Shown: positions 4,574 through 29,184, counted from the first letter of the stretch. The stretch is 32,000 nucleotides of DNA from Geobacter sulfurreducens PCA (GCF_000007985.2 NC_002939.5:3750001-3782000); one strand, 5' to 3'. Program-made: numbers and translations. Notes: generated from the sequence alone by a model not told the origin.

Positions 4574-5170
4574 TCACTCGGAATGCCGTCCGGCCCGCGG
4601 CATAACGTTCGGCCCCAATGCCGCCGCGGCTTCCGCGTAGCCGCCCGGAATTTCGAATTGTCCCGACGGAATCGGCGCCGGGACAACCTGTTCCCAGGAA
4701 ACGACCGCGCCACGTTTATCCTCCCACCGGAGCGGGACCGGCAACGGCGGGACCGCCTCCCAGAGGTACCCCCGGAAGGTGGTGCCGTTCTGGGTTATTT
4801 CCGCAGCGTATTTCATGGTATCACGGCCGTCCAGCAGCTCCTTCCCCAACTCGGTCCGGTTGACCCGCAGGGCGGGGTCGAAGAACAGGGGAACGTCCCG
4901 GCGCAGATCGGCAAGGGAAATCTCCCGGTACACGGCCATAGTGGGGGCCAGCAGCCATGCCACACCCCTGTCGTAGCGAAGGATCGACACCGATGTCTTG
5001 CGCTGGCTGCTGAATTCCATCCGCACCCGGTCACCGGACGCTGAAACCCGGGCGGTCCCCGTTACCCCTTCGACCGTGGCATGGTACACACCCGTCCACG
5101 ACGAGGATGATGCACATCCCCCCAGTGCGAGGACTATGAGCACTGCAATGGCACCAACCTGGCACCTCAT
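4574..5170 (-). CDS. Lipoprotein, LolA-like/DUF4412-like fold suspected; function unknown
   Basis: Signal peptide with lipobox LALGG-C. SD GGAGAGAG before the ATG. The fold assignment is a guess from beta-rich composition. Confidence 0.75.
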   Translation of the reverse strand: MRCQVGAIAVLIVLALGGCASSSSWTGVYHATVEGVTGTARVSASGDRVRMEFSSQRKTSVSILRYDRGVAWLLAPTMAVYREISLADLRRDVPLFFDPALRVNRTELGKELLDGRDTMKYAAEITQNGTTFRGYLWEAVPPLPVPLRWEDKRGAVVSWEQVVPAPIPSGQFEIPGGYAEAAAALGPNVMPRAGRHSE

Positions 5171-5234
5171 GATCTCTCTCCGGGAAGGAGCACCCGCTCA
5201 AATGTCCCGCGGGTGCCCCTTCGTGCAGGATTGA

Positions 5235-6878
5235 CTACTTCTTGACCACGGTCGAGGCGGTCTTCAGGTTGTTGGCGCCGTTGATATCCTTCTCGTTGGT
5301 CACCTTTGCTTCCCACTTGACCGTTGTCCCGTAGGAGGGGGCGGTCCAGACGAAGCTGTAGGTAACGGCGCTGTTGTCAGCAGGAGTCGCAACGGTCTGG
5401 GAGAAGTTGCCGACAACCACGCCCGAGCTGTTCTTGCCCACCAGGGTCAGGCTGCCGGATGCAACTCCCGCCTGCAGATTGTCCACCGTAACCTTGAGGG
5501 TTTGGACCGAGCTTTTGCTCGCACTGGTCGGAATGGCAACGGAGGTGACGGCAAGATCGATCGTCGGCACCGCTACGCCGTCGGGATCTTCGTAGGTTAC
5601 CAGCAGTTGGGCGCTGCGGACAACCGTTGGCTTGCCCACTTCGCCCTTGACGTAGAGCATCAGGTCCAGATCACGGGTGAGGGGACAGTCTTCCATGGAG
5701 TACCCGTCAAACGGATCGTAGTTACCGAAAATGTCGGTGTGCTCGTCCAGGAAATTATTCCAGTTTTTCGAGTCTGCCAGGACCGGCAGACCGGTGACGG
5801 GGTCCTTGATCGTCAGCAGGTCGATAGTGGTCGTTGTGGGGGTACCCACCACGTACTGGGGAATCTCTACACCCGGCAGGTCCTGGCCATATTTGCTCGA
5901 CTTGAGCCGAAAACGGGGATTGAGCCCGCCGAAGGGGTCCCGGTCCAGGGTCGTGTACCAGGCATTGGTGTACTCGAAGAGCCCGGTGGCCGGATTGAGC
6001 GCTTTCAGCACAGTGCCGGCAGGCAGCAGTTCAAGGTCGCCCCCCTCCTGGGAGTCAACCGCGGACACCCATGTCCCGGCCGGGAGCCCGGAGCAGGCCG
6101 CCGGCGCCAGAGCCGGCGCGGTGGGGCAGACAGTGTACTGGGGCAGGATACCGGTGGCATTCTCGTTCTCGAAGTCCTCGGGGCGGATCTGGTCGTTGGG
6201 ACTGTTGCTGATGTCGTGATCAACGACGAGCTTGGCCGACGTAACCTTGTAGCTGGCCCCGGCAACCTTCCACTTGTCCGGCAGCGGCAATGCGGTGTAG
6301 ATGTAGACAGGGGTCGGCTCCTGGTTGTAGTTGCCCCAGAAGTACAAGTATTTGCCATCGTCTTTCATTCGCTTATTGTAGTCGATCCCTTCCTGGAGGG
6401 GATTCGGATCGGCAGGGTCGCGCATGAGATGGTCCATGACCACGTACTTCTCGGTAGCAGCCTTGGCCTTGAGGGCGCCGAGCCCCTTGGCCCACTCGCC
6501 ACCGATGGGGCCCGTCTTCCAGTTGCCGGTTTCATTGTTCTGAACCTTCACGCCGATGACGTTGCCGGAGCCGTCAAGAATATCGGCTACGCGACCATCG
6601 TCGTACACGCCGTCACGGGGCTTGGGCTGGAGCGCCGACGAGTCGAAGTTCTTCACATACCAGCCGTAGACCGAGTCGATGCCATAGTAGGTGAGACTGC
6701 CTTCAACCACGGGATTGCCGAGGCAGGTGGAACCGATAATGCCTCGGCCGCACTGGATGTCTTCCTTTTTGAATACATGGGTGGTGGTGTAGTTGACGGA
6801 CACGGCGTGAGCAACACCGGCGGTGAGCAGCATGCCGAGGGTCATGGCGGATATCTGTGCGATGTTCTTGTGTTTCAT
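5235..6878 (-). CDS. Secreted protein of unknown function with a C-terminal CARDB-like domain
   Basis: I place the start at MKHKNIAQISAMTLGMLLTAGVAHA (ATG 6878, SD GGAGGAG 8 nt upstream) rather than the ORF-track start at 6950. The C-terminal ~100 aa (DLAVTSVAIP...LKVTVDNLQAG...VTYSFVWTAP) follow a CARDB pattern. I recognise no family for the N-terminal ~420 aa. Confidence 0.8.
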   Translation of the reverse strand: MKHKNIAQISAMTLGMLLTAGVAHAVSVNYTTTHVFKKEDIQCGRGIIGSTCLGNPVVEGSLTYYGIDSVYGWYVKNFDSSALQPKPRDGVYDDGRVADILDGSGNVIGVKVQNNETGNWKTGPIGGEWAKGLGALKAKAATEKYVVMDHLMRDPADPNPLQEGIDYNKRMKDDGKYLYFWGNYNQEPTPVYIYTALPLPDKWKVAGASYKVTSAKLVVDHDISNSPNDQIRPEDFENENATGILPQYTVCPTAPALAPAACSGLPAGTWVSAVDSQEGGDLELLPAGTVLKALNPATGLFEYTNAWYTTLDRDPFGGLNPRFRLKSSKYGQDLPGVEIPQYVVGTPTTTTIDLLTIKDPVTGLPVLADSKNWNNFLDEHTDIFGNYDPFDGYSMEDCPLTRDLDLMLYVKGEVGKPTVVRSAQLLVTYEDPDGVAVPTIDLAVTSVAIPTSASKSSVQTLKVTVDNLQAGVASGSLTLVGKNSSGVVVGNFSQTVATPADNSAVTYSFVWTAPSYGTTVKWEAKVTNEKDINGANNLKTASTVVKK

Positions 6879-7114
6879 TCCCTTTCTCCTCCAGTTAAGT
6901 TTGCTTAGTTTCTGTTCAAACGCTTCCGGAACACACCGGAACGACAACATGCCCGCGGTAATGCGGAACGGGCATCCCTCTCCTTCCCACCGGGTAGCCG
7001 ACGCCTCATGTGGGCTGTTCGCCTCCCTCTTTCACAACACAACGGATTACGCTACGACCAAGACACGCGCACATGCACATCGCTACATTAAGCACCTTGC
7101 GTTCCAAGTCGAGC

Positions 7115-7290
7115 AAAAATTATCATATTTACATAAATTTAATTTAATTGTTTAAAAATATTAATTTATTTATAAACAATAATTGCATTATCTTGTGATG
7201 TCGAACTATGAATAACTACGCCATATAGCTACATCCATTGACCGCACACGAGTAGCAAAGATTATTTTAATAATTAATTACAAATACTTG
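7115..7290. other. AT-rich island in the divergent intergenic region, with AT-only palindromes
   Basis: 8 G/C in the 60 nt 7141-7200, counted by eye. 12/13 inverted repeat ATTGTTTAAAAAT (7147-7159) / ATTTATAAACAAT (7168-7180). Second AT core at 7256-7290 (TAATAATTAATTA). Confidence 0.8.
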
Positions 7291-7378
7291 AACAGCTACC
7301 GCCCTATGACCATCCCTTCCGTCTTTTTAAGACGGGCATTGACGGCGAATTCTCTCCCCATCCTGCTAAGGAGAACAG

Positions 7379-7407
7379 TTGACAGAGGCATGACCGCTCT
7401 CTACTCT
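7379..7407 (+). promoter_or_regulatory. Sigma-70-like promoter candidate for the radical SAM operon
   Basis: TTGACA (7379-7384), 17-nt spacer, TACTCT (7402-7407). The -10 is weak (3/6). Confidence 0.3.
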
Positions 7408-7460
7408 TGAAGGGATATGGCAGTAACCTGACCGGCGCCGACCGGCGCCCCGAGGACCAC

Positions 7461-8879
7461 GTGCGCATCCTCTTCGTTCACCCCCACGGCAGCAACTGGA
7501 TGGGTGCCGGCAACGACATCACCGCCATCTTCAACCTCATGCCCCCCCTGGGGATGTTGAGCATCGCCGCGTTTCTGGAGGCGCGGGGCATGGAGGTGGA
7601 AATCATCGACTGCTACGGTACCGGCCGACGGGGACGGGACCTGGTGGATGAGATCGTCCGCCGGCGACCCGACGCAGTCGGGTTTTCCTGCACCACCTCG
7701 TCGTTTCTCGAAGGGTACGCCCTGGCCGAGGGACTCAAGGAGTTGCTCCCGGACATCCCGGTGATCTTCGGCGGCGCCCACGCCTGTTCGGTGGGGGTGA
7801 GCCTTCTGGACCGGTTCCCGGCCATCGACTACCTGGTTCTGGGCGAAGGGGAACAGACCCTGTACGAACTTGCTGCCGCGAGCTTTCGCAATGTGGAGAA
7901 AATTCCCGGCGTCGGCTACCGCCGTGACGGCGTCGGCACCCTCTCTGCGGCCCGGGAGCTCATCGCCGACCTGGACACCCTTCCCTTTCCGGCCTACCAC
8001 CGGCTTCCCGACTTCCCCCGGCGCTACACCCTGCCCCTGTTCAGCTACCCCAAGGCTCCCAACACCAGTGTCATTTCGAGCCGCGGATGTCCCTACCAGT
8101 GCTCCTACTGTGACCGGTCGGTCTTCAGCCGGGGCTTCCGCTTCAACTCGTCCGAGTACATTGTGGAGCACCTGGCCTACCTCAACCGGGACTTCGGCAT
8201 CCGCCACGTCTTTTTCTACGACGATCTTTTCACCGCCGACCGGGGCCGCGTGGCCCGCTTCTGCCAGTTGAAGGAGGCACGACGACTGCCGGTGACCTAC
8301 AACTGCATCGCCCGCCTCGAACATGTGGATGCCGAGTTGTTGGCGCTGCTGAAGCGTTCGGGCTGCTGGCAGGTGAATTTCGGCATTGAGTCCGGCGATC
8401 CGGAGGTGATCAAAAAGCACCGGAAGTACTACGGACTCGACGAGGTGCAGACCAAGCTGGCCATGGTCCGCCGGGCTGGGATGCGGGTGAAGGGGCTGTT
8501 CATGCTGGGGCTGCCGGGAGAGTCGGCGGAATCCATCCGCCGGACCATCGATTATGCCCTGATGCTGCCCCTGGACGAGATCAACGTGACCAAGTTTACC
8601 CCCTTCCCCGGCGCGCCCATCTACGGGGGCATCAGGGAACAGGGGGAGTTCGACGAGAACTGGCCTCTCATGAACTGTATGAATTTCGTCTTCGTGCCCA
8701 CGGGGATGAGCCGGGACCAACTGGAGGAGCTCTACAACGAGTTCATCCGGCGCTTCTACCGCCGGACCCGCATCCACTGGGGATACACGCAGATGCTCTG
8801 GAAGTCGCCCGACAGCATCCTCAGATTCCTGCGCCACCTGCCGGAGATTCTGGCCTTCGAGATGAAGCAGAAGTGGTAA
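7461..8879 (+). CDS. B12-binding-domain radical SAM protein (class B rSAM)
   Basis: CPYQCSYC (CxxxCxxC) cluster after an N-terminal B12-binding-like domain that begins (V/M)RILFVHPHG. I prefer GTG 7461 (SD GAGGA 4 nt upstream); the alternative is TTG 7407 as in the ORF track. Confidence 0.9.
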   Translation: MRILFVHPHGSNWMGAGNDITAIFNLMPPLGMLSIAAFLEARGMEVEIIDCYGTGRRGRDLVDEIVRRRPDAVGFSCTTSSFLEGYALAEGLKELLPDIPVIFGGAHACSVGVSLLDRFPAIDYLVLGEGEQTLYELAAASFRNVEKIPGVGYRRDGVGTLSAARELIADLDTLPFPAYHRLPDFPRRYTLPLFSYPKAPNTSVISSRGCPYQCSYCDRSVFSRGFRFNSSEYIVEHLAYLNRDFGIRHVFFYDDLFTADRGRVARFCQLKEARRLPVTYNCIARLEHVDAELLALLKRSGCWQVNFGIESGDPEVIKKHRKYYGLDEVQTKLAMVRRAGMRVKGLFMLGLPGESAESIRRTIDYALMLPLDEINVTKFTPFPGAPIYGGIREQGEFDENWPLMNCMNFVFVPTGMSRDQLEELYNEFIRRFYRRTRIHWGYTQMLWKSPDSILRFLRHLPEILAFEMKQKW

Positions 8880-8911
8880 AGGTGATGCGGCAAGGCATCA
8901 GCGAGGTGTCC

Positions 8912-9502
8912 ATGAAACGTTACGCTATGATCCTGCTCCTGGTGGCAGGCCAGTTGCTCTCGGCAGGCGCCGGACATGGAGAAGAGCCGGCCGTGCGGAC
9001 CGCATCCGGCGAGTTCGCCATCCTGGGGGGCTATGGCATCACCCACCGGGGGTTCGGCGCCACCCGCACCCAGGTGGAAACGGTGGATGCCATCCTGCGC
9101 TACGGGCACTTCCTCTCGGGAGAGCTGGGCACCGGCCGCTGGTTCCAGGGGCGCCACGAACTGCTGGTGGAAGTGCCGCTCCACCTGACCCTGGACCCGC
9201 GCGTGCGGACCATGACCGGCGGCTACCTCCTGGGCAGCTGGAAATTCACCTCCCTTGAGGGGCTGGCCCCCTATGTCTTCGCCGGCGGCGGCATCCTCTA
9301 CAACGACCTGGGACTCGACACCCAGGGGACGCGGCTCAATTTTTCCTACCAGGGGGGGACGGGGCTCCAGTGGTTCGTGCGGCCGGACACGGCCCTGGGA
9401 ATCGAGTACCGCTATCACCACGTCTCCAACGCCGGCACCGCCGAACCCAACGAGCCTCTGAATTCGAGCAAGTTTCTGCTGGGGGTATCGGTCTACCGGT
9501 AG
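8912..9502 (+). CDS. PagL-like acyloxyacyl hydrolase / lipid A 3-O-deacylase family outer-membrane beta-barrel
   Basis: Signal peptide MKRYAMILLLVAGQLLSAGA. Alternating beta-strand pattern. C-terminal YRYHHVSNAG...E (His-x-Ser-Asn catalytic-type motif), ending LLGVSVYR. Start chosen at ATG 8912, not 8873. Confidence 0.75.
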   Translation: MKRYAMILLLVAGQLLSAGAGHGEEPAVRTASGEFAILGGYGITHRGFGATRTQVETVDAILRYGHFLSGELGTGRWFQGRHELLVEVPLHLTLDPRVRTMTGGYLLGSWKFTSLEGLAPYVFAGGGILYNDLGLDTQGTRLNFSYQGGTGLQWFVRPDTALGIEYRYHHVSNAGTAEPNEPLNSSKFLLGVSVYR

Positions 9503-9509
9503 GTACGCC

Positions 9510-11039
9510 ATGAACAGAAGGGACTTCCTTAAAACCGCCGGACTGACCGGCATCGCCCTGGGGCTCCCCGGCTGCGCCCGGAGCCTCCCCTTCGGCCGGG
9601 ACGTCTTTCCCGACTTCGGTGACGATGCCCGCCCCTACCTGGGGCTTGCCACGTCGCTGCGGGAGGAGCACGACTACGAGGCCCGGGTGGAAGGAACCAT
9701 CCCCGCGGGGCTGCGCGGCACCCTCTACCGCAACGGCCCGGCCCTCTTCGATCGGGGTGGGATGCGCAAGCGGACCCTCCTGGACGGGGACGGCATGGTG
9801 CAGGCGTTCCGTTTCGGCGACCGTGGGATCAGATATGCGAACCGCTTCGTGCGGACCCGGAAATTCGTGGAAGAAGAGGCTGCCGGCCGCTTCCTCCATC
9901 CCACCTGGAGCACCCAGGCCCCCGGCGGAATCTGGACCAACGTCTGGCCCACGGAGCGGCTCCTGAGCCAGGCGGGGATTACGGTCTTCCCGTGGCGGGG
10001 ACGGCTTTACGCCTTCGACGAATCATCTTTCCCCTACGAACTGGACCCGGATACCCTGGCAACCGTGGGCGAAACCACCTTTGGCCTGCCGCGCGACCTC
10101 ACCACTTACTCGGCCCATGGCAAGTTCGACCCGGTCACGGGAGAATGGCTCCACTTCGGCATCCGCTACGGCCCCCGAACCTTTGTCCACCTGACCACCT
10201 TCAATGCGGACGGCACCCTCCGCCGCCACCGGGCCCTGGAGCTTCCCCGCGCGATCTACATGCACGACTGGTTCGTAACCGAGCGCCACGTGGTGTTCCA
10301 CCTCCACCCGGTGGAAATCGCCTACTGGCCCTTCCTGCTCGGCATCCGGAGCATGGCCGAATCCCTCCGCTGGCGCCCCGAACGGGGAACGATCCTCATG
10401 GTGGCGGAGCGGGACGGCGAGGCGCCGCCACGCCTGGTGGAAACCGAGGCATGCTATCTCTGGCACACCTTCAACGCGTGGGAAGAACGAGGGAAAATCA
10501 CTGCCGACTTCGTGGGGTACCGCAACCCGGACCATTTCATCAGCGACGATCCGGTCATAACCGCGGTCATGCTGGGACGGCGGGGAACCTATTCCTATCC
10601 CGGCGAGGTCATGCGCTACCGGATCGATCCGGCCAGGGGAACGGCCGCCCGCGAGGTGCTCCATCAGGGGAGCTGCGAGTGGCCCCGCATCGACGAGCGG
10701 CTCCGTTGCCGCCCACACCGCACGGGGTACATGCTCCGCTGCCTTCCCGGCGAATTCTTTTGGTCAATCGTCATGGGGCTCGACCCGGTTACCGGCCGCA
10801 CCGACGAGTACAGCTTCGGCCGGGGCGTCTACTGCACCGAGCCGGTCTTCGCGCCGCGGCCCGACACCCTCGCCGGCGGCCCCGGCTGGCTCCTGGTCGA
10901 ACTCTATGACAGCCGCACCCGCACCAGTTCACTGGCCATCCTCGACGCCGACAGGATCGCCGATGGCCCCCTGGCCCTCGTTCGACTCACCCACCACGTC
11001 CCCTTCAGTTACCACGGCTGGTGGCAGCCTGCTTCTTAG
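9510..11039 (+). CDS. Carotenoid oxygenase (RPE65/CCD/lignostilbene dioxygenase) family enzyme with a Tat signal, possibly a lipoprotein
   Basis: Twin-arginine motif NRRDFLK followed by LPGC. Four His contexts typical of the family: SAHGKFDP, MHDWFVTE, WHTFNAWEE, YHGWW. Confidence 0.9.
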   Translation: MNRRDFLKTAGLTGIALGLPGCARSLPFGRDVFPDFGDDARPYLGLATSLREEHDYEARVEGTIPAGLRGTLYRNGPALFDRGGMRKRTLLDGDGMVQAFRFGDRGIRYANRFVRTRKFVEEEAAGRFLHPTWSTQAPGGIWTNVWPTERLLSQAGITVFPWRGRLYAFDESSFPYELDPDTLATVGETTFGLPRDLTTYSAHGKFDPVTGEWLHFGIRYGPRTFVHLTTFNADGTLRRHRALELPRAIYMHDWFVTERHVVFHLHPVEIAYWPFLLGIRSMAESLRWRPERGTILMVAERDGEAPPRLVETEACYLWHTFNAWEERGKITADFVGYRNPDHFISDDPVITAVMLGRRGTYSYPGEVMRYRIDPARGTAAREVLHQGSCEWPRIDERLRCRPHRTGYMLRCLPGEFFWSIVMGLDPVTGRTDEYSFGRGVYCTEPVFAPRPDTLAGGPGWLLVELYDSRTRTSSLAILDADRIADGPLALVRLTHHVPFSYHGWWQPAS

Positions 11040-11053
11040 CACCTGCTGACGGT

Positions 11054-12526
11054 TCAATGGGCAGGAAAGAACTGCAGCACCCGCTCCAGCCCACTCCCTA
11101 CGGCACGTGCGGGGGGAGCGGGAGTGGCATCGGGGAACTGCTTCAGCCGCTTGGCAAGCGCCTGCCGGGTTATGCCGAGCATGGCCGCCGCCAGGGTCTG
11201 ATTGCCCCGGGCGCGCCGGACCGCCTCCATGACCAGCCTGTGCCCTCCCTCTTCAAGGGTCGGCAGCCGCTCGGGGAAAATGATCTCCGCATCGGGCGCC
11301 GGGGACGGCAGGTCCGTGCTGTAACCGATCTTCTCCTTGAAGCTGTCCAAGGACAGGACATGGGAGCGATGGCGGCTCACCGCATCGTAGATCATGGCCC
11401 GCAATTCGCGGATGTTCCCCGGAAAAGAGTAGATGGACAGGAGCGTTGCCAGCTCCCGGGGTGGGGTGGGGCGACGTTTACCCAGGGTATCAGCGGCTTC
11501 CGAGAGGAAATGGTCGATGAGCAGCGGCAGGTCCTCGAACCGCTCCCGCAGGGGAGGAATCTGGACCTGGTGAGCGTTGAGACGGAAGTAGAGGTCCTTG
11601 CGGAACCCGTTGGAACCGTTCTTGCCGCTCAGGTCGTGGTTGGTGGCGAACACGAGCCTGGCCCGGAGCTTGCGGGGAGTGTCCGAACCGATGGGGAAAA
11701 ATTCCCCCTCCTGGAGGAGCCGGAGCAGCTTCACCTGGGAGGCATGGCTCAGGTCCCCTATTTCGTCCAGAAAGAGGGTACCGCCGGCGGCCTCTTCGAT
11801 CATGCCGCGCCGCTCGCGCTCGGCGCCGGTAAACGCGCCGCGGGCGTGCCCGAACAGAGTGTCTGCAAAGATGGTATCGTCGAGCCCCGCCGCGTTTACC
11901 GCCACCCAGGGACCGCCGGGGCAGCGGATGCGGTGGACGGCGCGGGCGATGAGCTCCTTGCCGACTCCGCTTTCACCGGTGATCAGGATCGGTTCGCTGC
12001 TCTGGGCCACGGCCTCGCAGTACTGGAAGACCGCCCGCATCTTCTTGCTGGCGGTCATGATTTCCGCAAAAGCCTCCGGATGAGCCAGGTGGTCTTCCAG
12101 GAACCGCGCCTTGAGGCTGCGATTTTCGTTGCGCATCTCCTGCATGGAGAACGCCCGCTGGATGCCGGTGATGAGGCGCTCCTTCTCCACGGTCTTCACG
12201 TAGTAATCGAAGGCTCCCAACTGCATGCAGCGCACAGCCGTTTCCACCTGGTTCAGTCCGCTCAGGACGATCACCGGAATGTCCGGATATTCTTGGCCGA
12301 TCATCTGCAGCAGGTCTGTGCCGGAGAAGTAGGGCATGGTCAGGTCGAGCAGAATCAGGCTCACCTCGGTCTCGCGCAGAATATCCATCACCTGCCTGCT
12401 ATCGGAGCATTTGATGATATTATCAATGCCGGTGGCTTCCCGTAGCGTGAGCGACAGGCTGCGCAACCACGCAGCCTCATCGTCAACCAGCAGGATGGGC
12501 TTGGGGGGGTACTTTTCCGGGCTCAT
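11054..12526 (-). CDS. Sigma-54-dependent response regulator (NtrC family: REC + AAA+ + Fis-type HTH)
   Basis: Receiver LILLDLTMP, Walker A GESGVGKE, GAFTGA loop, C-terminal HTH LGITRQALAKRLKQ. The ATG overlaps the kinase stop (ATGA). Confidence 0.95.
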   Translation of the reverse strand: MSPEKYPPKPILLVDDEAAWLRSLSLTLREATGIDNIIKCSDSRQVMDILRETEVSLILLDLTMPYFSGTDLLQMIGQEYPDIPVIVLSGLNQVETAVRCMQLGAFDYYVKTVEKERLITGIQRAFSMQEMRNENRSLKARFLEDHLAHPEAFAEIMTASKKMRAVFQYCEAVAQSSEPILITGESGVGKELIARAVHRIRCPGGPWVAVNAAGLDDTIFADTLFGHARGAFTGAERERRGMIEEAAGGTLFLDEIGDLSHASQVKLLRLLQEGEFFPIGSDTPRKLRARLVFATNHDLSGKNGSNGFRKDLYFRLNAHQVQIPPLRERFEDLPLLIDHFLSEAADTLGKRRPTPPRELATLLSIYSFPGNIRELRAMIYDAVSRHRSHVLSLDSFKEKIGYSTDLPSPAPDAEIIFPERLPTLEEGGHRLVMEAVRRARGNQTLAAAMLGITRQALAKRLKQFPDATPAPPARAVGSGLERVLQFFPAH

Positions 12527-14847
12527 GCGGCAATAACCTCCTTTTCGGCCGGCAGGGACAGGGTAGCCGTTGTCCCGGCTCCCGGGACGGACTGGAATTC
12601 GAGTGTGCCGCCATAACTTCTGACGATGCGCATGCAGATCGACAGACCGAGACCCGTGCCGCCGGTTTCGCGCTTTGTGGTGAAGAACGGATCGGTGATG
12701 CGGGGAAGGACCTCCGGGGGAATCCCCTGCCCCTCGTCGCGCACCTGAATCGTGTAGACCCCATGGATAAGGTCGTAGCCGGTGCTGACGGTGATCCCTT
12801 TCGTTTTGTCCTGGAGGGACTGGCAGGCGTTCATGATCAGGTTGACCACTACCTGCTCGATCCGTTGGATGCTTCCCTCGAAGGAAGGGAGGCCAGGGGC
12901 CAGCTCCAGCGCGAAATGGTCGGTGGCATTTTTAATGGCATTGCCCACCAAGCGGACCGAGGCCCGGACCGCCTCGTTCAGGTCCACAGGCTCGCACTGG
13001 TCGGCGCCGTCGCCGCGGGCGAAGTCCTTGAGGTCATCCACGATCCGCTTGATGCGGCCGGCGCCCTCTTCCATCTCCGTCAGCAGGAGTGGCAGCTCCT
13101 CGCTCATTTCCGACCAGGGGATCCCCCCGATCGCCAACTCGCTCTGCCGGTCAACGCGATCCAGCAGCAGGGGGATTGCTTCCCGGCACACCTTTTTGAC
13201 CAGGTCCACGTTAAGCAGGATCACCGCATTGGGGTTGTTGATCTCGTGAGCCACGCCGGCTGCCAGCTCACCCAGCGATGCGAGCCGGCTCGTCCTGACC
13301 GTTTCCTCCAGAAGACGGACTTTGTCGGAGATGTCGCTGGCCAGCATGATGACGTGGCTCACCGTCTCCGACCCCTCCCTGACCGGGAATGCCTTCACCT
13401 CAAGGGTCCTGCCGTCGGGCGTGGTAATGGTGGATTCCTCGTTCTCGCCCGACTCGAAAGCCCTCACCGCCGGACAGTTATCACAGAGAGTGGTGCGGTT
13501 GTAGAGCATCTCGCAACAGTATTCGCCGGGCACGGTCCGCAACGGCGCCCCAAAGGGATCACCGGCCACCTTGTTGGACCAGACCACCTTCATGTCGTGG
13601 GAAATGAGGGTGAGACTGTCGGGGATGCCGTCCAGAATGATCCCGAACTGCCGGGAAAGCTGCCGGTAGTTCTGCTCGCTCTGGCGCAGTCTGAGCTCGG
13701 CCCGGCGGCGGAGCAGGATGCTCCAGGTGAGCAGCAGGGTGATGCTCAGGGAGCCGAGCAGAATCGCGACAGACCAGAGAAACTGGGACTTGCTCAGGTT
13801 GTAGAACGGCTTGGGTCCGTTGACCAGAATGTGCTTTGGCGGCAGGTGCCGGGGAGATATCCCGAGTCGCTGCAGTTCCTCGTAGTCAAAGGTCGGTACG
13901 GTGATGACCGATTGCTCCACCGGAATATCGGCCACCGGCTCCCCATGAAGCACTCGCAGTGCCGTCCGCGCGGCAATTCGCCCCTGCTCGTGCACATCCA
14001 CGAACGGCCCCCCCACGATCCCCTCGCCGAGAAAAACGTTCCAGAAGCTGTAGAGGGGAAGCCCCCCCTGCCGCAGCAGGCCTGTCTGCTCGTGGAACGA
14101 GAGAAGATTCCCCGAACGGTCGCGAATCGACCCGTTGATGAGGATTACGGCCCCGCGGACAGGGGACTGGAGTCGTGCGATGATCTCCTCGGCCGACAGG
14201 TCATTCCAGTAATCGAACGTTACCCGCCCCGCGAATGCCTGGCTTGCCGCCATGAGTCGCTGGGTATTAAGGCGATCCGTCAGCTCACGGGTGCCGCCGA
14301 TGACGATCATTCTGGTCGTGCCGGGATGAAGCGCCAGAGCCTGCCTGATGACTCCCGTAAAATCGGGATCGGCCCTGACGCCCGTATGCCAGGCCGAGGC
14401 GGTGGGGAGCGGATCGGGGCCGACGGTTGCGCAGGATACGATAGGTGCACCGCGGAACAGGTCACGACGATTGGCGAGAGCGTAGTCGAGCGCCTCGTTA
14501 CCGGATGCGATCACCAGATTGAATGACCGTTGCCGCAGCTTGTGGTGCAACACCGCGTCGAACATGCGGGAAACCTGGGCGGACTGCCGGTGGCGCTTCA
14601 CATCGAGATATTCCACGTCCATGTGAATCCGTTCGAAGGAATTCGACAGCACATCCTGGATTCCCGCCATGACCTGGTCGGTCCACGGATACCCGGGGTG
14701 ATAGGAATGGAGCACCAGGATGTGGTTGGCCGCCCGCGCCTCGTAGTCGGCGCTTGCCGGAACGGAATACACCCCAACGAGCATAATGACCGGCCACAGG
14801 CGCGACAATACACAAACGAAACAGCGCAATCCCACCAATCGAAACAT
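12523..14847 (-). CDS. Sensor histidine kinase with a periplasmic ABC-substrate-binding-like domain, TM, PAS, HisKA and HATPase
   Basis: N-terminal TM, then ILVLHSYHPGYPWTD (typical of ABC_sub_bind sensor domains), a second TM, a PAS region, H-box VAHEINNP, G-boxes DEGQGIP and GGTGLGLSI. Confidence 0.92.
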   Translation of the reverse strand: MFRLVGLRCFVCVLSRLWPVIMLVGVYSVPASADYEARAANHILVLHSYHPGYPWTDQVMAGIQDVLSNSFERIHMDVEYLDVKRHRQSAQVSRMFDAVLHHKLRQRSFNLVIASGNEALDYALANRRDLFRGAPIVSCATVGPDPLPTASAWHTGVRADPDFTGVIRQALALHPGTTRMIVIGGTRELTDRLNTQRLMAASQAFAGRVTFDYWNDLSAEEIIARLQSPVRGAVILINGSIRDRSGNLLSFHEQTGLLRQGGLPLYSFWNVFLGEGIVGGPFVDVHEQGRIAARTALRVLHGEPVADIPVEQSVITVPTFDYEELQRLGISPRHLPPKHILVNGPKPFYNLSKSQFLWSVAILLGSLSITLLLTWSILLRRRAELRLRQSEQNYRQLSRQFGIILDGIPDSLTLISHDMKVVWSNKVAGDPFGAPLRTVPGEYCCEMLYNRTTLCDNCPAVRAFESGENEESTITTPDGRTLEVKAFPVREGSETVSHVIMLASDISDKVRLLEETVRTSRLASLGELAAGVAHEINNPNAVILLNVDLVKKVCREAIPLLLDRVDRQSELAIGGIPWSEMSEELPLLLTEMEEGAGRIKRIVDDLKDFARGDGADQCEPVDLNEAVRASVRLVGNAIKNATDHFALELAPGLPSFEGSIQRIEQVVVNLIMNACQSLQDKTKGITVSTGYDLIHGVYTIQVRDEGQGIPPEVLPRITDPFFTTKRETGGTGLGLSICMRIVRSYGGTLEFQSVPGAGTTATLSLPAEKEVIAA

Positions 14848-15212: not shown

Positions 15213-16136
15213 GTGGACACGTCTCTTTCTTTACGCAAACGTCTCAAGTGGCACCTGGGCGTCTTCGCGGCCATCGTCGCGACCCTGCCGGTGCTGCTGC
15301 TTCCCGCGCCGGTCGCCGTAGCCCTCGGGGGGGCAGCCGGCTCTCTCGCCTTCCGGCTCCTGGGCAAGGTGCGCCGGAACACCGTCACGAACATCAGGAA
15401 CGCGCTCCCCGCGCTCCAATCCATGGAAGGGTGGGATCCGGCAGCGGGCACGCCGGAGGAGATCGCCCGGCGCACCTTCGTCAACCTGGGGCGGACCGCC
15501 GTGGAGATCATCAAGCTCTGCTACGGACAGGGACAGGGGCTGGTGGAGGGGACGGAACTGCGGGGAATGGAGCACTACCTGCGGGCAAAGGAGCGGGGCA
15601 AGGGGGTCATTTTCATCACGGGGCACTGCGATAACTGGGAGATCGTGGCCCACGCCTTCGGCACCCATTCCGACGGCATGGCCGTGGTGGCCCGCCGCCA
15701 GAAGTACGAGCCGCTGACAAGGCTGCTTGAGCGGCTGCGCAACCGGCACGGCAACAGCGTCATCTACGCCGACGGCGCGGCACGACAGATCTTTTTCCGC
15801 TTGAGGAAGAACGGCGCCATCGGCCTGCTCATGGACCAGGCAGTCCATCCCAGCGAGGGAGAGCTGGTGGAATTTCTGGGGAAAAAGGCATGGACCACCA
15901 CCATGCCGGCCCTGTTGGCGGCCAAGACCGGCGCGGCCCTAGTCCCCGGATTCGGGAGGCGGGAGGGGAATCGTCACGTGCTGGAATTCTTCCCCGAGAT
16001 AGCACCCGACCCCGCCGGCGACCCCATCGCCACCACCAGGCTCCTCAACCGCGCCATCGAAGCCTACATCGTCCGCCACCCGGACCAGTGGCTCTGGGTC
16101 TATAACCGCTGGAAGCGAGTACCGGCGGAGCAGTAG
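15213..16136 (+). CDS. Lipid A biosynthesis (Kdo2-lipid IVA) late acyltransferase, LpxL/HtrB family
   Basis: N-terminal TM segment and HCDNWE (HX4D/E acyltransferase motif). Family-typical length of 307 aa. GTG start immediately after an in-frame TAG. Confidence 0.85.
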   Translation: MDTSLSLRKRLKWHLGVFAAIVATLPVLLLPAPVAVALGGAAGSLAFRLLGKVRRNTVTNIRNALPALQSMEGWDPAAGTPEEIARRTFVNLGRTAVEIIKLCYGQGQGLVEGTELRGMEHYLRAKERGKGVIFITGHCDNWEIVAHAFGTHSDGMAVVARRQKYEPLTRLLERLRNRHGNSVIYADGAARQIFFRLRKNGAIGLLMDQAVHPSEGELVEFLGKKAWTTTMPALLAAKTGAALVPGFGRREGNRHVLEFFPEIAPDPAGDPIATTRLLNRAIEAYIVRHPDQWLWVYNRWKRVPAEQ

Positions 16137-23530: not shown

Positions 23531-24094
23531 CTACTCCTCCACCACCACGCTCACGATCCCTCGCAGGTCTCCCGCCGCGAATCCGGTGGCCCGGTCGCCG
23601 GGGTAGCACGCCTGCAGATGCGTCTTCACCTCGGGAGGGATCGAGTCTTCGGCACCGTGGCAGACGAGGCAGCCGGGCTGCACGAGGATCGGCTTCACGT
23701 AGCGCAGGACCTGCTTGCCCCCCACCCGGGCCGGCACGATCATCTCCCCCGGCAGGCTCCCCTGCTCCTTCATGGCGGCCAACCGCTCAAGGGCACTGCG
23801 CTCGAAGGGGTCGGGACTGTTGGCCGGGTTTCTGATCTTGAGCGATGTTCGCCGGATGGACAGATGTTCGGTCCGCGCCAGTTCCGCCGTCAGTTTCTGG
23901 GCCTCAGCGAAGCAGACCTTCACCGCCTCTGCCGGTCCTTTCTCCTTCATCACGATCATGACCCGCTCCCGCAGGGTGGCGGAAAGTCGGTCAGCGGCCA
24001 TCCGGGCACGGGGGACCGCGTCGCCTTCGGCACCAAAGGCCGGGAGCGTACCGAACAGCGTCGCAAACAGGCAGGTGGCGAGCATGCGTCTCAT
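23531..24094 (-). CDS. Periplasmic c-type heme protein, DUF3365 (Tll0287-like) family
   Basis: Start chosen at ATG 24094 (SD GGGAGG; signal peptide MRRMLATCLFATLFGTLPAFGA). Single CLVCH heme-c motif near the C-terminus, then PGD...GDLRG as in DUF3365. Confidence 0.8.
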   Translation of the reverse strand: MRRMLATCLFATLFGTLPAFGAEGDAVPRARMAADRLSATLRERVMIVMKEKGPAEAVKVCFAEAQKLTAELARTEHLSIRRTSLKIRNPANSPDPFERSALERLAAMKEQGSLPGEMIVPARVGGKQVLRYVKPILVQPGCLVCHGAEDSIPPEVKTHLQACYPGDRATGFAAGDLRGIVSVVVEE

Positions 24095-24117
24095 CTGGTT
24101 CCTCCCGAACACGTGGC

Positions 24118-25518
24118 TCAGGCCTTGAGGATCGCCTCAACCAAGTCGAACAAAGGACCGGGCCAGACGCCGAGAGCCAGGATGGCGACGGTCACGGCGC
24201 CGAGGCATACCGCCTCCGCCGGGGTGGGGAGCGGACCCGGGGCAGCCTCCTCAGCCGGTTTCATGTAGAGGTTCACCACCACCCGCAGGTAGTAGTAGGC
24301 CGACGCCGCTGCCGTGAGGATGCCGATGATCGCCAGGGGCGTCTCTCCTGCCCTGAGGGCCGCGAAAAAGATGGCGAATTTCCCCGCAAAACCCACGGTG
24401 GGGGGAATTCCCGCCAGGGCAAACATGGCCACCGCCAGTACCACCCCCTGGAACGGCCGCCGGTAGCCGATCCCCCGGAGCTCATCCACCTGCTCCAGCG
24501 GTCTTTCCTGTTCCAGGGAGGCAAGGGCACCGAAGGCCGCCAGGCTCATGACCCCATAGGCAACGGCATAGAAGGCCGCGGCCTCGTAGCCCCGTCCACC
24601 AGAGAGGAGCGCCAGGGCCACGTACCCCATCTGGGCCACGGAGGAGTAGGCGAGCATCCGCTTCACATTGGGCTGGAGCAGCGCCGCCAGGTTCCCCACG
24701 GCCATGGAGAGGAGCGCCAGCCCCCAGAGGGGCGCCCGCAGGGGACCGATTTCCCCCAGGGGGGGCAGGATCAGCAGGAACAGGGCGATGGCCGCTCCCT
24801 TGGAACCGGCGGCCAGGAAGGCGGTCACCGGCGTCGGCCCCCCCTGGTAGACATCCGGGGTCCAGAGGTGGGCCGGGGCCAGCGACACCTTGAAGGCGAG
24901 CCCCGCCAGGAGGAGCCCCCATCCCGCCAGGGCGATCCCGCCGCCCGCTGCCGAGGCGGCAACGGCCCGCCCGATCTCCAGGGAGCCGGTGGCACCATAG
25001 AGGAGCGCGATGCCGAAGGCCACGAATGCCGCGGACACGGCACCCATGAGGAGATACTTGAGTCCCGCTTCCCCCGATGCCGGCCGGTTGCGATCATAGG
25101 CCACCAGGATGTAGAATGCGAAGGTCAGGGCCTCCAGCCCCAGAAAGAGGGTCAGGAAGTTGGCCGCGCTCGCCACCACCCCCATGCCGAATGCGCCGAA
25201 CAGGATCGTGGCCGGATACTCCTCTCCCTCCAATCCCTGCCGGTCGGCGTGGTCATGGGCAAGGAGCAGGGACAGGAGCGCGGTCACCGCGAAAAGCACC
25301 AAAAACGACCGGGCGAACGGCGTGAACGCCACCCCCAGGGTCGGCGCCAGGGGCCGGGGGGGGGTCTGCAGAGCCCAGAGGGCCGCACCGGCGCAGACCG
25401 CCACTCCGATGGCAGTCCCGTACCGGCCAGGCACGATCGCACCCAGGATAAGCACGAGGACGCTCCCGCAGGCGAGGAGCAGAAGCGGCATGATGGTCCA
25501 GAGATCGGCGATGGTCAC
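24118..25518 (-). CDS. nuoN: NADH-quinone oxidoreductase subunit N
   Basis: HLWTPDVYQGGPTPVTAFL motif, about 14 TM segments. GTG start overlaps the nuoM stop (GTGA). Confidence 0.95.
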   Translation of the reverse strand: MTIADLWTIMPLLLLACGSVLVLILGAIVPGRYGTAIGVAVCAGAALWALQTPPRPLAPTLGVAFTPFARSFLVLFAVTALLSLLLAHDHADRQGLEGEEYPATILFGAFGMGVVASAANFLTLFLGLEALTFAFYILVAYDRNRPASGEAGLKYLLMGAVSAAFVAFGIALLYGATGSLEIGRAVAASAAGGGIALAGWGLLLAGLAFKVSLAPAHLWTPDVYQGGPTPVTAFLAAGSKGAAIALFLLILPPLGEIGPLRAPLWGLALLSMAVGNLAALLQPNVKRMLAYSSVAQMGYVALALLSGGRGYEAAAFYAVAYGVMSLAAFGALASLEQERPLEQVDELRGIGYRRPFQGVVLAVAMFALAGIPPTVGFAGKFAIFFAALRAGETPLAIIGILTAAASAYYYLRVVVNLYMKPAEEAAPGPLPTPAEAVCLGAVTVAILALGVWPGPLFDLVEAILKA

Positions 25519-27005
25519 GGTGCCACCCCCGTCAGCAGCGCCACCGGCACCTTGAGGATATCCAGGAGCGGTTTCGGATGGACCCCGATGTAGAGATCGA
25601 TCACGGCCAGTACGGCCAGCACCGCCCCCTCACGCAGGGTCAGGTCGGGCAGGCGCAGTGGCCGCCGTTCCGTCTGGAAGAGAACCTCCTGCACGAGTCG
25701 CACGGTGTAGATAAGCGGCAGCACGATACCGAGGAAGGCGATTGCCCCGGCTGCTGGCGTGATCCGGAAGACCCCCACCAGGATCAGGAACTCTCCCACG
25801 AAGTTGTTGAGCCCCGGCAGCCCCGCCGAAGCCATGGCGAAGAAGAGAAAGAAAAAGGAGAAGGCCGGCATGGTTCCCCAGAGTCCGCCGAACGCCGACA
25901 CCTCCCGGGTGTGGGCGCGCTCGTCCAGCATCCCCACCAGGGCGAAGAGAGCGGCGGTGGTGAAGCCGTGGTTCACCATCTGGAGAATGGAGCCCGACAG
26001 GGCCACCGGCCCCCAGGAGGCGATCCCGAGGGCGACGAACCCCATGTGCCCAACGCTGGAGTAGGCCACCATCCGTTTCATGTCCTCCTGGGCGTAGGCG
26101 ATCCACGAGGCATAGAGGATGCCGATGATTGCCAGCACGTAGAGGAGCGGCGTGAATCCTTTGGCCGCCTCGGGAAAGAGCGGGTAGCCGAAGCGGACCA
26201 GACCGTAGGCCCCGGTCTTCAGGAGCAGCGCCGCCAGGATCACGCTGCCGGCCGTGGGGGCGTCGGTGTGGGCGTCCGGGAGCCAGGTGTGGACCGGAAA
26301 CAGCGGAAACTTGATGGCGAAGGCCAGCAGAAACGCCCCGAAAAGCCACGGAGCCGCGGCATGGGCAATGGGTGACTTGGCCAGGAGCGGCAGGGCAAAG
26401 GTGAAGGTGCCGGTGGCATCGCCATGAATGAGGTAGACCCCGATGATGGCCAGCAGCATCAGGAGCGAGCCCACCAGGGTATAAAGGAAGAACTTAACTG
26501 CCGAGTAGATGCGTCGGCCGTGGCCCCAGATGCCGATCAAGAAGAACATGGGGATCAGCATCACTTCCCAGAAGAGGTAGAAGAGGACCAGGTCAAGGGA
26601 AAGGAACACTCCCATGATCCCGCTCTCCATGAGAAGGATCAGGAAGTAGTGGAGCGTGGCCCGCTCGGTGATGCCGCGCCACGAAACGAGCATCGCCACC
26701 ACCGTGGTGAAGGCGGTGAGGGCCACCATGAGGAGGCTGATCCCGTCCATCCCCAGCAGGTACCGGATGCCGAACCGCTCGATCCAGGCGGCATCTTCCC
26801 AGAGAAAATACCCTGCTGCGGCACCCGGCGCCGGCGGCATTCCCGGCGCGGCGACGAGGACCCAGCCGGCCAGGGCCAGTTCCGCCACGGCAATCCCCAG
26901 GGCGAGGGGGCGGGCCCACTCCGGACGGTTCCAGACCGGCGCCAGGCAGAAGCACCCCGCCAGGGGGAGGAGGATCAAGATGGTGAGGATGGAGTAGGAA
27001 GTCAT
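25515..27005 (-). CDS. nuoM: NADH-quinone oxidoreductase subunit M
   Basis: WLPDAHTDAPTAGSVILA motif. Start placed at ATG 27005 (MTSYSILTIL, SD GGGGAGGA), overlapping the nuoL stop by 1 nt. The ORF-track start at 27089 is an extension. Confidence 0.95.
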   Translation of the reverse strand: MTSYSILTILILLPLAGCFCLAPVWNRPEWARPLALGIAVAELALAGWVLVAAPGMPPAPGAAAGYFLWEDAAWIERFGIRYLLGMDGISLLMVALTAFTTVVAMLVSWRGITERATLHYFLILLMESGIMGVFLSLDLVLFYLFWEVMLIPMFFLIGIWGHGRRIYSAVKFFLYTLVGSLLMLLAIIGVYLIHGDATGTFTFALPLLAKSPIAHAAAPWLFGAFLLAFAIKFPLFPVHTWLPDAHTDAPTAGSVILAALLLKTGAYGLVRFGYPLFPEAAKGFTPLLYVLAIIGILYASWIAYAQEDMKRMVAYSSVGHMGFVALGIASWGPVALSGSILQMVNHGFTTAALFALVGMLDERAHTREVSAFGGLWGTMPAFSFFFLFFAMASAGLPGLNNFVGEFLILVGVFRITPAAGAIAFLGIVLPLIYTVRLVQEVLFQTERRPLRLPDLTLREGAVLAVLAVIDLYIGVHPKPLLDILKVPVALLTGVAP

Positions 27006-28879: not shown

Positions 28880-29184
28880 CCCTGCAGCTCCCTGAACTCA
28901 TCCGCATCAACCGTCTTCTTCCGCCGGTGGAGGTAGACCACCATGGCCAGGGCCAGGGACACCTCGGCCGAGGTGAGGGCCATGATGATGAGGGAGAAGA
29001 CCTGTCCGTCCGCCATTCCCCAGCGGGCCGCGCCCCCCACGAAGGCGAGCATGGCGGCGTTGAGCATCACTTCGATACCGATGAGGAGCATGATCAGGTT
29101 CATCCGCCAGACCAGGACGCAAACAAGCCCCAGGGCGAAGAGAAGGCCGGCAAGGATCAGAACGTGCTCGAAGGGGACGATCAC
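28876..29184 (-). CDS. nuoK: NADH-quinone oxidoreductase subunit K
   Basis: 102 aa, three TM segments, LLIGIEVMLNA motif. GTG start overlaps the nuoJ stop. Confidence 0.95.
   Translation of the reverse strand: MIVPFEHVLILAGLLFALGLVCVLVWRMNLIMLLIGIEVMLNAAMLAFVGGAARWGMADGQVFSLIIMALTSAEVSLALAMVVYLHRRKKTVDADEFRELQG

Follow-up and report, generated by a model that had tools for sequence, protein, structure and literature searches.

A conserved radical SAM and PagL-like gene pair adjoins a lipid synthesis-and-export cluster in relatives of Geobacter sulfurreducens and is occasionally joined by a carotenoid-cleavage-oxygenase-family gene

Introduction

Type II fatty acid synthesis (FASII) gene clusters that contain radical S-adenosylmethionine (SAM) enzymes, described as 'ladderane-like', are common to anammox bacteria, Desulfotalea and Geobacter (Rattray et al. 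2009, PMC2649909). Here, we describe three adjacent genes of Geobacter sulfurreducens PCA and the context of their counterparts in related genomes. The genes lie at 7461-11039 of a 32,000 nt stretch of the chromosome, hereafter the window (GCF_000007985.2, NC_002939.5:3750001-3782000), and encode a class-B (B12-binding) radical SAM enzyme (rSAM), a PagL-family outer-membrane barrel and a protein of the carotenoid-cleavage-oxygenase (CCO) family. The gene inventory that we see around the first two genes in relatives is that given for the 'ladderane-like' clusters, whereas the PagL-like barrel, this rSAM subfamily and the CCO-family protein are not mentioned there as members (Rattray et al. 2009, PMC2649909). 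The same neighbouring genes resemble those of aryl-polyene/flexirubin clusters as well as 'ladderane-like' FASII clusters: divergent pairs of ketosynthases (KS), a ketoreductase (KR), a dehydratase (DH), a malonyl/acyl transferase (MAT) and B12-dependent rSAM enzymes, together with glycosyltransferase (GT) and polysaccharide-deacetylase-like genes, a lysophospholipid acyltransferase (LPLAT), an MMPL-type protein and LolA- and LolB-like proteins.

The three proteins can also be compared individually with characterized families. The rSAM enzyme has the N-terminal cobalamin domain and CxxxCxxC core of HpnJ, HpnR, HpnP, BchE and TIGR04072, and with 472 aa it matches HpnJ in length and aligns to it almost end to end. 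Unlike these families it scores below threshold throughout, and its sequence is compatible with methylation and rearrangement alike; its link to TIGR04072 is one of neighbourhood, which in relatives holds several paralogous B12-rSAM enzymes, including one true TIGR04072 member. PagL stands alone under PhoPQ-type control. The barrel resembles the PagL proteins of Pseudomonas aeruginosa (PDB 2ERV) and Salmonella in being a small eight-stranded PF09411 barrel with a C-terminal H-x-S-N-A-G...P-N motif, which aligns with the PagL catalytic residues His126 and Ser128 and with Asn136. It differs from PagL in being only ~14% identical and ~45 residues longer, in having an invariant Asn at the Glu140 position, and in its genomic coupling to a B12-rSAM gene and a lipid export cluster. 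The CCO-family protein shares membership of a seven-bladed-propeller family and four iron-ligand His residues with the Synechocystis apocarotenoid oxygenase (ACO/Diox1, 2BIW), lignostilbene dioxygenases (LSDs) and NOV1. Characterized ACO/LSD-type enzymes are cytosolic. Unlike ACO, LSD and NOV1, the Geobacter protein is sub-threshold for all equivalog families and carries a twin-arginine translocation (Tat) signal and a lipobox; in contrast to ACO and LSD, it comes from anaerobic or microaerophilic hosts, and its surroundings showed no carotenoid genes.

Results and Discussion

The rSAM and PagL-like genes form the conserved unit

The conserved unit at this locus is the rSAM and PagL-like gene pair, not the trio. 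A metagenome scan with an alignment of the barrel gave 80 loci, and our counts use those with enough flanking sequence; rSAM orthologs were called at a score of ≥200, paralogs scoring ≤162. Of 42 informative loci, 34 had an rSAM ortholog directly upstream of the barrel gene, on the same strand and within 3.6 kb. The rSAM and barrel genes are overlapping or almost contiguous in G. daltonii (L086), Geobacter sp. DSM 9736 (L170) and 'Geotalea uraniireducens' AP027151 (L171), and many rSAM and barrel matches share the same 2-6 kb contigs. A CCO gene was found within 6 kb of the barrel gene in one of 38 loci, plus a further locus on a short contig (L092).

The CCO gene was surveyed from its own side by aligning 19 orthologs and scanning one genome per GTDB species, which yielded 80 loci, 72 of them informative. 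Open reading frames (ORFs) in all six frames of each locus were searched with the window proteins, with a reach of ~10 kb around the genes. The pair, or the cluster that goes with it, lay within ~10 kb of the CCO gene in no more than five of these 72 loci (L006, L011, L016, L026 and L040).

An earlier note on the window, made from its sequence alone, had described three head-to-tail genes with gaps of 32 and 7 nt, and the ORFs are exactly as described. Its family calls (B12-rSAM, PagL-like and CCO) were confirmed for all three proteins by profile hidden Markov model searches; the motifs that it quoted (CxxxCxxC, H-x-S-N, four His residues, RRDFLK and LPGC) are all present in the sequence; its predicted division of the products between the cytoplasm, the outer membrane and a Tat-exported lipoprotein holds; and an operon structure is likely. 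Its treatment of the trio as a unit survived in part. The full trio does recur in at least five other lineages, namely G. pickeringii (L169), DSM 9736, AP027151 and two metagenome-assembled genomes (MAGs; L006 and L011), but the CCO gene and the pair are apart in 67 of 72 CCO loci and in 37 of 38 pair loci.

The loci in which the genes are linked show a variety of gene orders. In L006 and L011 the full trio is followed directly by an LpxL-like gene; L026 has rSAM-CCO and then MMPL; L040 has PagL-CCO and then MMPL-LolB-LolA-DH-KS-KS-KR-rSAM; and in L016 the whole cluster is followed by the PagL-like gene, a sigma-54 regulator and the CCO gene. The trio of DSM 9736 abuts LolB-LolA-KS-KS-KR-B12-rSAM-thioesterase-MAT-B12-rSAM, and partial trio arrangements are present in about five further lineages. 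In L026, L040, L139 and L170, the CCO gene separates the pair from the MMPL cluster, and it stands alone in G. metallireducens and G. hydrogenophilus. A neighbour-joining CCO tree distributes the proteins linked to the pair or the cluster over at least five separate branches. For a genome of 4 Mb, we estimate that random placement would bring a CCO gene to within 10 kb at a rate of ~0.5% per genome. We regard the CCO gene as an occasional add-on, which was either placed beside the pair repeatedly or kept in some lineages only.

The linked lipid synthesis-and-export cluster

In relatives of G. sulfurreducens, the pair adjoins a TIGR04072-type ('ladderane-like') cluster. A set comprising MMPL, LolB, LolA, a FabZ-like protein, two KS proteins, KR, B12-rSAM and MAT is located convergently downstream of the pair in 12 of 30 loci, and two cultured organisms, G. 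daltonii and DSM 9736, have the same cluster beside the pair. Pfam and NCBIfam searches of representatives identified the exporter as an HAE3/HpnN-like MMPL pump (HpnN 177 bits, against a cut-off of 752). The LolA-like protein, which is accompanied by a LolB-like protein, has its best, sub-threshold match to flexirubin LolA2. The enzymes of the cluster are a FabZ-like hotdog protein, a KS matched over its N-terminal domain only, a FabF-like KS, a FabG-like KR and a MAT, and the B12-rSAM of the cluster passes the TIGR04072 threshold (405 vs 360). The barrel gene stays by the MMPL/Lol/KS set even in three loci that lack the rSAM gene (L157, L161 and L165).

A second recurrent set, positioned upstream of the pair, encodes an LPLAT (PF03279), a B12-rSAM, an rSAM/SPASM protein, a family 2 glycosyltransferase (GT2) and a polysaccharide deacetylase. 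The combination of GT2, deacetylase and B12-rSAM is reminiscent of HpnI, HpnK and HpnJ in the synthesis of hopanoid head groups, a likeness that we take as a lead for reaction type only. The parts of the cluster covered by flanks of ≤10 kb showed no aryl-starter genes (ammonia lyase or adenylation enzyme), and the similarity to aryl-polyene systems there is of the generic FabF-like kind. The envelope-lipid theme of the earlier note is thus borne out to the extent that the pair is physically joined to a lipid synthesis and export cluster in many relatives.

A proposed role for the pair

The gene neighbourhoods led us to propose that the pair is a peripheral part of a FASII/polyketide-like lipid synthesis and export system, and that the trio is not an autonomous three-enzyme pathway. 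The protein families, motifs, gene order and co-occurrence counts are observations. From family chemistry and gene context we infer that the genes tailor or turn over an outer-membrane lipid that is exported and probably unsaturated, and the substrate, the order of steps and the participation of the CCO-family protein are all to be read conditionally. A specialized, probably unsaturated acyl lipid would be made and radically modified in the cytoplasm, where the rSAM enzyme of the operon may carry out one radical step, either a C-methylation or an HpnJ-like rearrangement. An LpxL-type acyltransferase would then esterify the product, and the MMPL/LolA/LolB-like set would carry it to the outer membrane. 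There, the PagL-like protein would act as a Ser-His esterase that deacylates or trans-acylates the lipid. The Tat-exported, membrane-anchored CCO-family protein would be an accessory, cleaving a C=C bond of the lipid or of a released chain when O2 is present. We put the probability of this full model at roughly 0.5.

A number of observations weigh against the model. The main KS/MMPL cluster was not found within the G. sulfurreducens window. The pair lacks an adjoining CCO gene in 37 of the 38 loci with enough downstream sequence, as does the CCO gene the pair in 67 of 72, and the metagenome loci behind such counts are not taxonomically independent. The term 'unsaturated' rests on an apparent lack of enoyl reductase in the visible part of the cluster and on analogy. 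A CCO-family enzyme needs O2, and the hosts are mostly anaerobes. The acid residue of PagL, Glu140, is not kept at the aligned position of the barrel. Finally, no mention of these genes was found in the literature searched: searches for Geobacter with carotenoid oxygenase, for PagL with radical SAM and for periplasmic Tat carotenoid cleavage gave no match, those combining aryl-polyene or ladderane with Geobacter returned unrelated or generic genome-mining papers only, and none of the three genes was among the entries in the supplements of one RNA-seq paper.

The proposed role would add a previously unremarked conserved module, an orphan B12-rSAM with a PagL-like esterase, to the orphan rSAM-rich FASII system noted in 2009. 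A set of genes for transport to the outer membrane comes with the cluster itself, which in some lineages also has a putative periplasmic alkene-cleaving dioxygenase attached. If correct, the model would provide the first functional context for a clade of Tat-lipoprotein CCO-family proteins in anaerobes. All of G. sulfurreducens, G. daltonii and G. pickeringii are available in culture, and the first is amenable to genetics, so that lipidomics of a handful of mutants might bring to light a novel lipid of the outer membrane, in a bacterium that relies on its outer surface for extracellular electron transfer. Should the alternatives considered below prove right instead, the genes here are those of a common lipid A deacylase and its unrelated neighbours.

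The Tat-lipoprotein CCO-family protein

The CCO gene (9510-11039, + strand) encodes 509 aa that match the RPE65 profile (PF03055) at 395 bits over model positions 4-469 of 469. Four His residues (H203, H252, H319 and H502) occupy the iron-ligand positions in an alignment with Synechocystis ACO and are invariant in the 19 aligned orthologs; a full-length profile match and four ligand residues assign the protein to the CCO family at the sequence level. Its best PDB match is Synechocystis apocarotenoid oxygenase (234 bits), with LSDs at ~133 bits, and it falls below the NCBIfam equivalog cut-offs for LSD (177 vs 800), carotenoid dioxygenase (162 vs 675) and a third family (154 vs 650).

The protein begins with the leader RRDFLK...LGLPGC, in which Cys22 is invariant. 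The TAT_signal profile scores 21 bits, just under the Pfam cut-off of 22.7, and TIGR01409 scores 20.9 against a cut-off of 16.7. A motif search of 70 scorable CCO loci found the RR motif in 56, and the RR motif plus a lipobox-like L-x-G-C in 47. The leader is kept throughout the clade sharing at least ~55% identity, including MAGs of Holophagales, Thermoanaerobaculia and Nitrospirota, and is mostly absent from homologs at ≤45% identity. Given its Tat signal and lipobox, the protein is predicted to be a lipoprotein facing the periplasm, with the sequence hallmarks of Tat export.

This breadth also suits an explanation in which the CCO-family protein is independent of the pair, as a periplasmic lipoprotein dioxygenase that acts on an exogenous or unrelated alkene (a stilbenoid or lignin fragment, or an apocarotenoid) or in O2 or iron stress, its position being neutral. 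The same Tat-lipoprotein leader extends to Holophagales, Thermoanaerobaculia and Nitrospirota, 67 of 72 CCO loci have neither pair nor cluster nearby, other loci most often show the CCO gene next to genes for histidine kinases or sigma-54 regulators (11 loci) and for small OmpW-like barrels, and in G. metallireducens the gene has redoxin/DsbD and Fur/FeoB neighbours. A neutral position is harder to reconcile with a CCO gene embedded in or abutting the pair and the cluster in at least nine loci, in five gene orders and on at least five branches of the tree, when chance would account for ~0.5% per genome, or with gaps to the pair that range from 7 nt in the window to ~50 nt in relatives. We consider independence possible, although on balance rather unlikely.

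An opposite and doubtful extension of our model makes the CCO-family protein a dedicated periplasmic cleavage enzyme for a polyunsaturated product of the TIGR04072 cluster, with the barrel releasing or presenting the chain, which would be cut when O2 appears. Were this the case, it would imply O2-triggered remodelling of, or signalling by, an outer-membrane lipid in nominal anaerobes, and the cleavage fragments would offer a handle on the product of the orphan cluster.

The wider neighbourhood of the CCO gene is heterogeneous. Kinases or sigma-54 regulators that are not orthologous to the two-component pair of the window flank it in ~11 other genomes, which hints that the clade is often under two-component control. 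In five loci (L010, L016, L017, L018 and L031), a barrel of the OmpW/OMP_b-brl type (~208 aa), unrelated to the PagL-like barrel, is located ~1.5 kb downstream, which raises the possibility that CCO-family proteins are paired more generally with small barrels of the outer membrane. The G. metallireducens gene adjoins genes for redoxin/DsbD and Fur/FeoB. We rejected the idea of a constant CCO partner gene, as only the kinases or regulators and the small barrels recur.

The PagL-like outer-membrane barrel

The barrel gene (8912-9502, + strand) encodes 196 aa with a Sec signal peptide and matches the PagL profile PF09411 at 74.5 bits (cut-off 23). Its AlphaFold2 model has eight long strands (pLDDT 76), and the fold matches found in the PDB with Foldseek were OmpA and PagL, with 2ERV second (E = 7e-5, TM-score 0.59 on the target). 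These matches place the protein in the PagL family, with a modelled eight-stranded barrel fold. A PDB search with the single sequence returned nothing meaningful, 2ERV being reached only by profile search. In the profile alignment, H170-V-S172-N173 is aligned to His126, Ser128 and Asn129 of 2ERV, and Asn136 is also matched; His170, Ser172 and Asn180 are conserved, and the motif EYRYHH[IV]SNAGTAxPNEPLNSSK characterizes the PagL-like subfamily.

The catalytic triad of PagL is reported to be His126-Ser128-Glu140 (P. aeruginosa numbering; Rutten et al. 2006). The position of Glu140 in 2ERV is occupied by an invariant Asn184, and an invariant Glu181, three residues earlier, aligns with Asp137. The N-terminal half of the protein (GYGITHRGFGATRTQVQT...) is highly conserved and is located outside the Pfam match, and identity across Geobacteraceae matches is 63-88%. 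Taken together, the alignments suggest a distinct PagL subfamily that retains the catalytic His and Ser, with a predicted role as an esterase.

The plainest alternative to our model is lipid A remodelling, in which the barrel would be an ordinary 3-O-deacylase, the LpxL-like protein an ordinary late acyltransferase, and the rSAM and CCO genes unrelated neighbours in a synteny inherited by one Geobacter sub-lineage. Databases label the barrel 'lipid A 3-O-deacylase / acyloxyacyl hydrolase', it is above the Pfam PagL threshold with His, Ser and Asn kept, an LpxL-family gene is syntenic, and CCO orthologs are mostly located elsewhere. We nevertheless judge this explanation unlikely. The subfamily features described above, namely the conserved N-terminal half outside the Pfam match and the Asn at the Glu140 position, set the barrel apart from an ordinary deacylase; the rSAM gene accompanies it in 34 of 42 loci, and the two reading frames often overlap; it remains by the MMPL/Lol/KS cluster where the rSAM gene is missing (L157, L161 and L165); and no other lpx genes were seen around it.

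The B12 radical SAM enzyme

The rSAM gene (7461-8879, + strand, GTG start) encodes 472 aa with matches to the B12-binding domain PF02310 (79 bits, residues 25-137) and to Radical_SAM PF04055 (86 bits, residues 204-365), and its translation contains CPYQCSYC, a CxxxCxxC cluster motif. By these features, the predicted protein fits the definition of a class-B (cobalamin-dependent) radical SAM enzyme. The top NCBIfam matches were ApyD (192, partial), HpnJ (177, over 394 of 472 residues) and BchE (166), and the protein is below every NCBIfam equivalog cut-off (HpnJ 177 vs 578; HpnR 109 vs 650; BchE 166 vs 481; TIGR04072 107 vs 360). Because its scores are 3- to 6-fold under each family cut-off, we do not consider it an ortholog of HpnJ, HpnR, BchE or TIGR04072. 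The nearest solved structures are AprD4, Trp C2-methyltransferase and TokK. Orthologs across the Geobacteraceae are 72-84% identical and 472 aa long, and we assign the protein to an orphan class-B subfamily, predicted to be cytoplasmic.

The remaining explanation, the earlier note's suggestion of a hopanoid, a quinone or another isoprenoid lipid as the compound on which the trio acts in tailoring or turnover, is highly improbable. In its favour, HpnJ is the best full-length, albeit sub-threshold, NCBIfam match of the rSAM enzyme (177 bits, 394/472 residues), the MMPL pump of the cluster is HpnN-like (177 bits, sub-threshold) and isoprenoid polyenes are classic CCO substrates. Against it, the scores are far under the cut-offs for HpnJ (578), HpnR (650), HpnN (752) and BchE, none of ~170 loci showed an hpn, shc, crt or quinone gene, and the linked KS/KR/DH/MAT genes point to acyl-chain chemistry. 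The hopanoid hypothesis in particular was rejected for its lack of hpn genes and its sub-threshold scores.

In six metagenome loci (L093, L110, L114, L116, L117 and L125), a second, paralogous B12-rSAM gene is located between the rSAM and barrel genes, with HpnJ as its best sub-threshold match (123 bits); four loci have a gene for a BrkB/YihY-family membrane protein at this position instead. Orthologs of rSAM at 72-75% identity were also found in MAGs of unrelated families, L088 (GCA_014380135.1, binned as Steroidobacteraceae) and P0177 (binned as Desulfurivibrionaceae), and Geobacter-like rSAM, CCO and MMPL genes are present in L026, which is labelled 'Nitrospirae bacterium GWC2_56_14'. All three look like mis-binned Geobacteraceae contigs rather than evidence of a wide distribution.

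Operon layout and flanking genes

The three genes are on the same strand, separated by 32 nt (rSAM/PagL-like) and 7 nt (PagL-like/CCO), and an identical CCO protein in an identical gene order is present in GCA_024205665.1 (CP072789.1). A sigma-70-like promoter candidate, TTGACA-17 nt-TACTCT (7379-7407, + strand), lies in an upstream block that both G. pickeringii and the Geobacter MAG locus L011 retain ahead of their orthologous operons. Transcription is predicted to start near 7414. A TTG at 7407 is an alternative open start for rSAM, and GTG 7461 is preceded by GAGGA. The promoter block overlaps the TTG, which supports GTG 7461 as the true start, and this start agrees with the 472 aa length of all rSAM orthologs. 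No convincing terminator was found between the three genes by a generic promoter/terminator scan, which also overlooked the conserved promoter. The three genes likely form one transcription unit in chromosomes of the G. sulfurreducens type.

Downstream, the stop codon of a convergent sigma-54 response regulator gene (11054-12526, - strand) is only 14 nt from the CCO stop, followed by a gene for a PAS histidine kinase (12523-14847, - strand), both assigned by Pfam. A gene of the LpxL/LPLAT family (15213-16136, + strand), 4.2 kb downstream of the CCO gene, matches PF03279 at 164 bits and is below all NCBIfam cut-offs. Two hypothetical genes (4574-6950, - strand), encoding a 198-aa putative lipoprotein and a protein of 547/571 aa, lie between UvrD and the operon, and neither protein has a Pfam or NCBIfam match.

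In G. pickeringii and AP027151, the gene order is uvrD(-) | rSAM-PagL-CCO-LpxL-like(+) | crp(-), and an LpxL-like ortholog directly follows the CCO gene on the same strand in four loci (L006, L011, L169 and L171). The sigma-54 pair is absent from all four, and is therefore a lineage-specific insertion between the CCO and LpxL-like genes. The LpxL-like gene is probably the fourth gene of an ancestral rSAM-PagL-CCO-LPLAT unit. The earlier note was right in placing the sigma-54 pair 14 nt away and an LpxL gene ~4 kb away, but the former is an insertion and the latter probably a member of the unit. The hypothetical gene pair is likewise missing between UvrD and rSAM in L169, L171 and L011, and so resembles a lineage-specific insertion rather than a unit member. 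In this scenario, the lineage of G. sulfurreducens, G. pickeringii and AP027151 would have kept a four-gene unit between uvrD and crp, apart from the main cluster, and G. sulfurreducens would later have gained two insertions, the hypothetical pair and the sigma-54 pair.

The rSAM, PagL-like and CCO genes presumably correspond to GSU3415-3417, the sole concordance being that GSU3419 is called a sensor histidine kinase. The hypothetical pair may be GSU3409/GSU3410; two papers report those tags as strongly regulated in biofilm mutants.

The 510 nt intergenic region upstream of the operon (6951-7460) is exceptionally AT-rich for this genome, with long A/T runs, and harbours divergent promoters, and the lowest-GC bin of the window is 7001-8000 (0.55). 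A riboswitch or other RNA in this leader of a B12 enzyme was considered and rejected, as no Rfam family matched in the window at gathering thresholds, nor in 6900-7520 at E ≤ 1. A sigma-54 promoter tying the operon to the adjacent regulator was also rejected, there being no + strand site upstream. Sigma-54-like matches across the window number 11, against 12.4 expected by chance; one of these, TGGAAC-N5-GTGCT (7091-7106, - strand), is upstream of the 547/571-aa gene, such matches being no commoner than chance. Elsewhere in the window, the region 24001-29000 has a strong positive AT skew (0.20-0.30) because it contains three consecutive minus-strand NuoL/M/N-like Proton_antipo_M genes.

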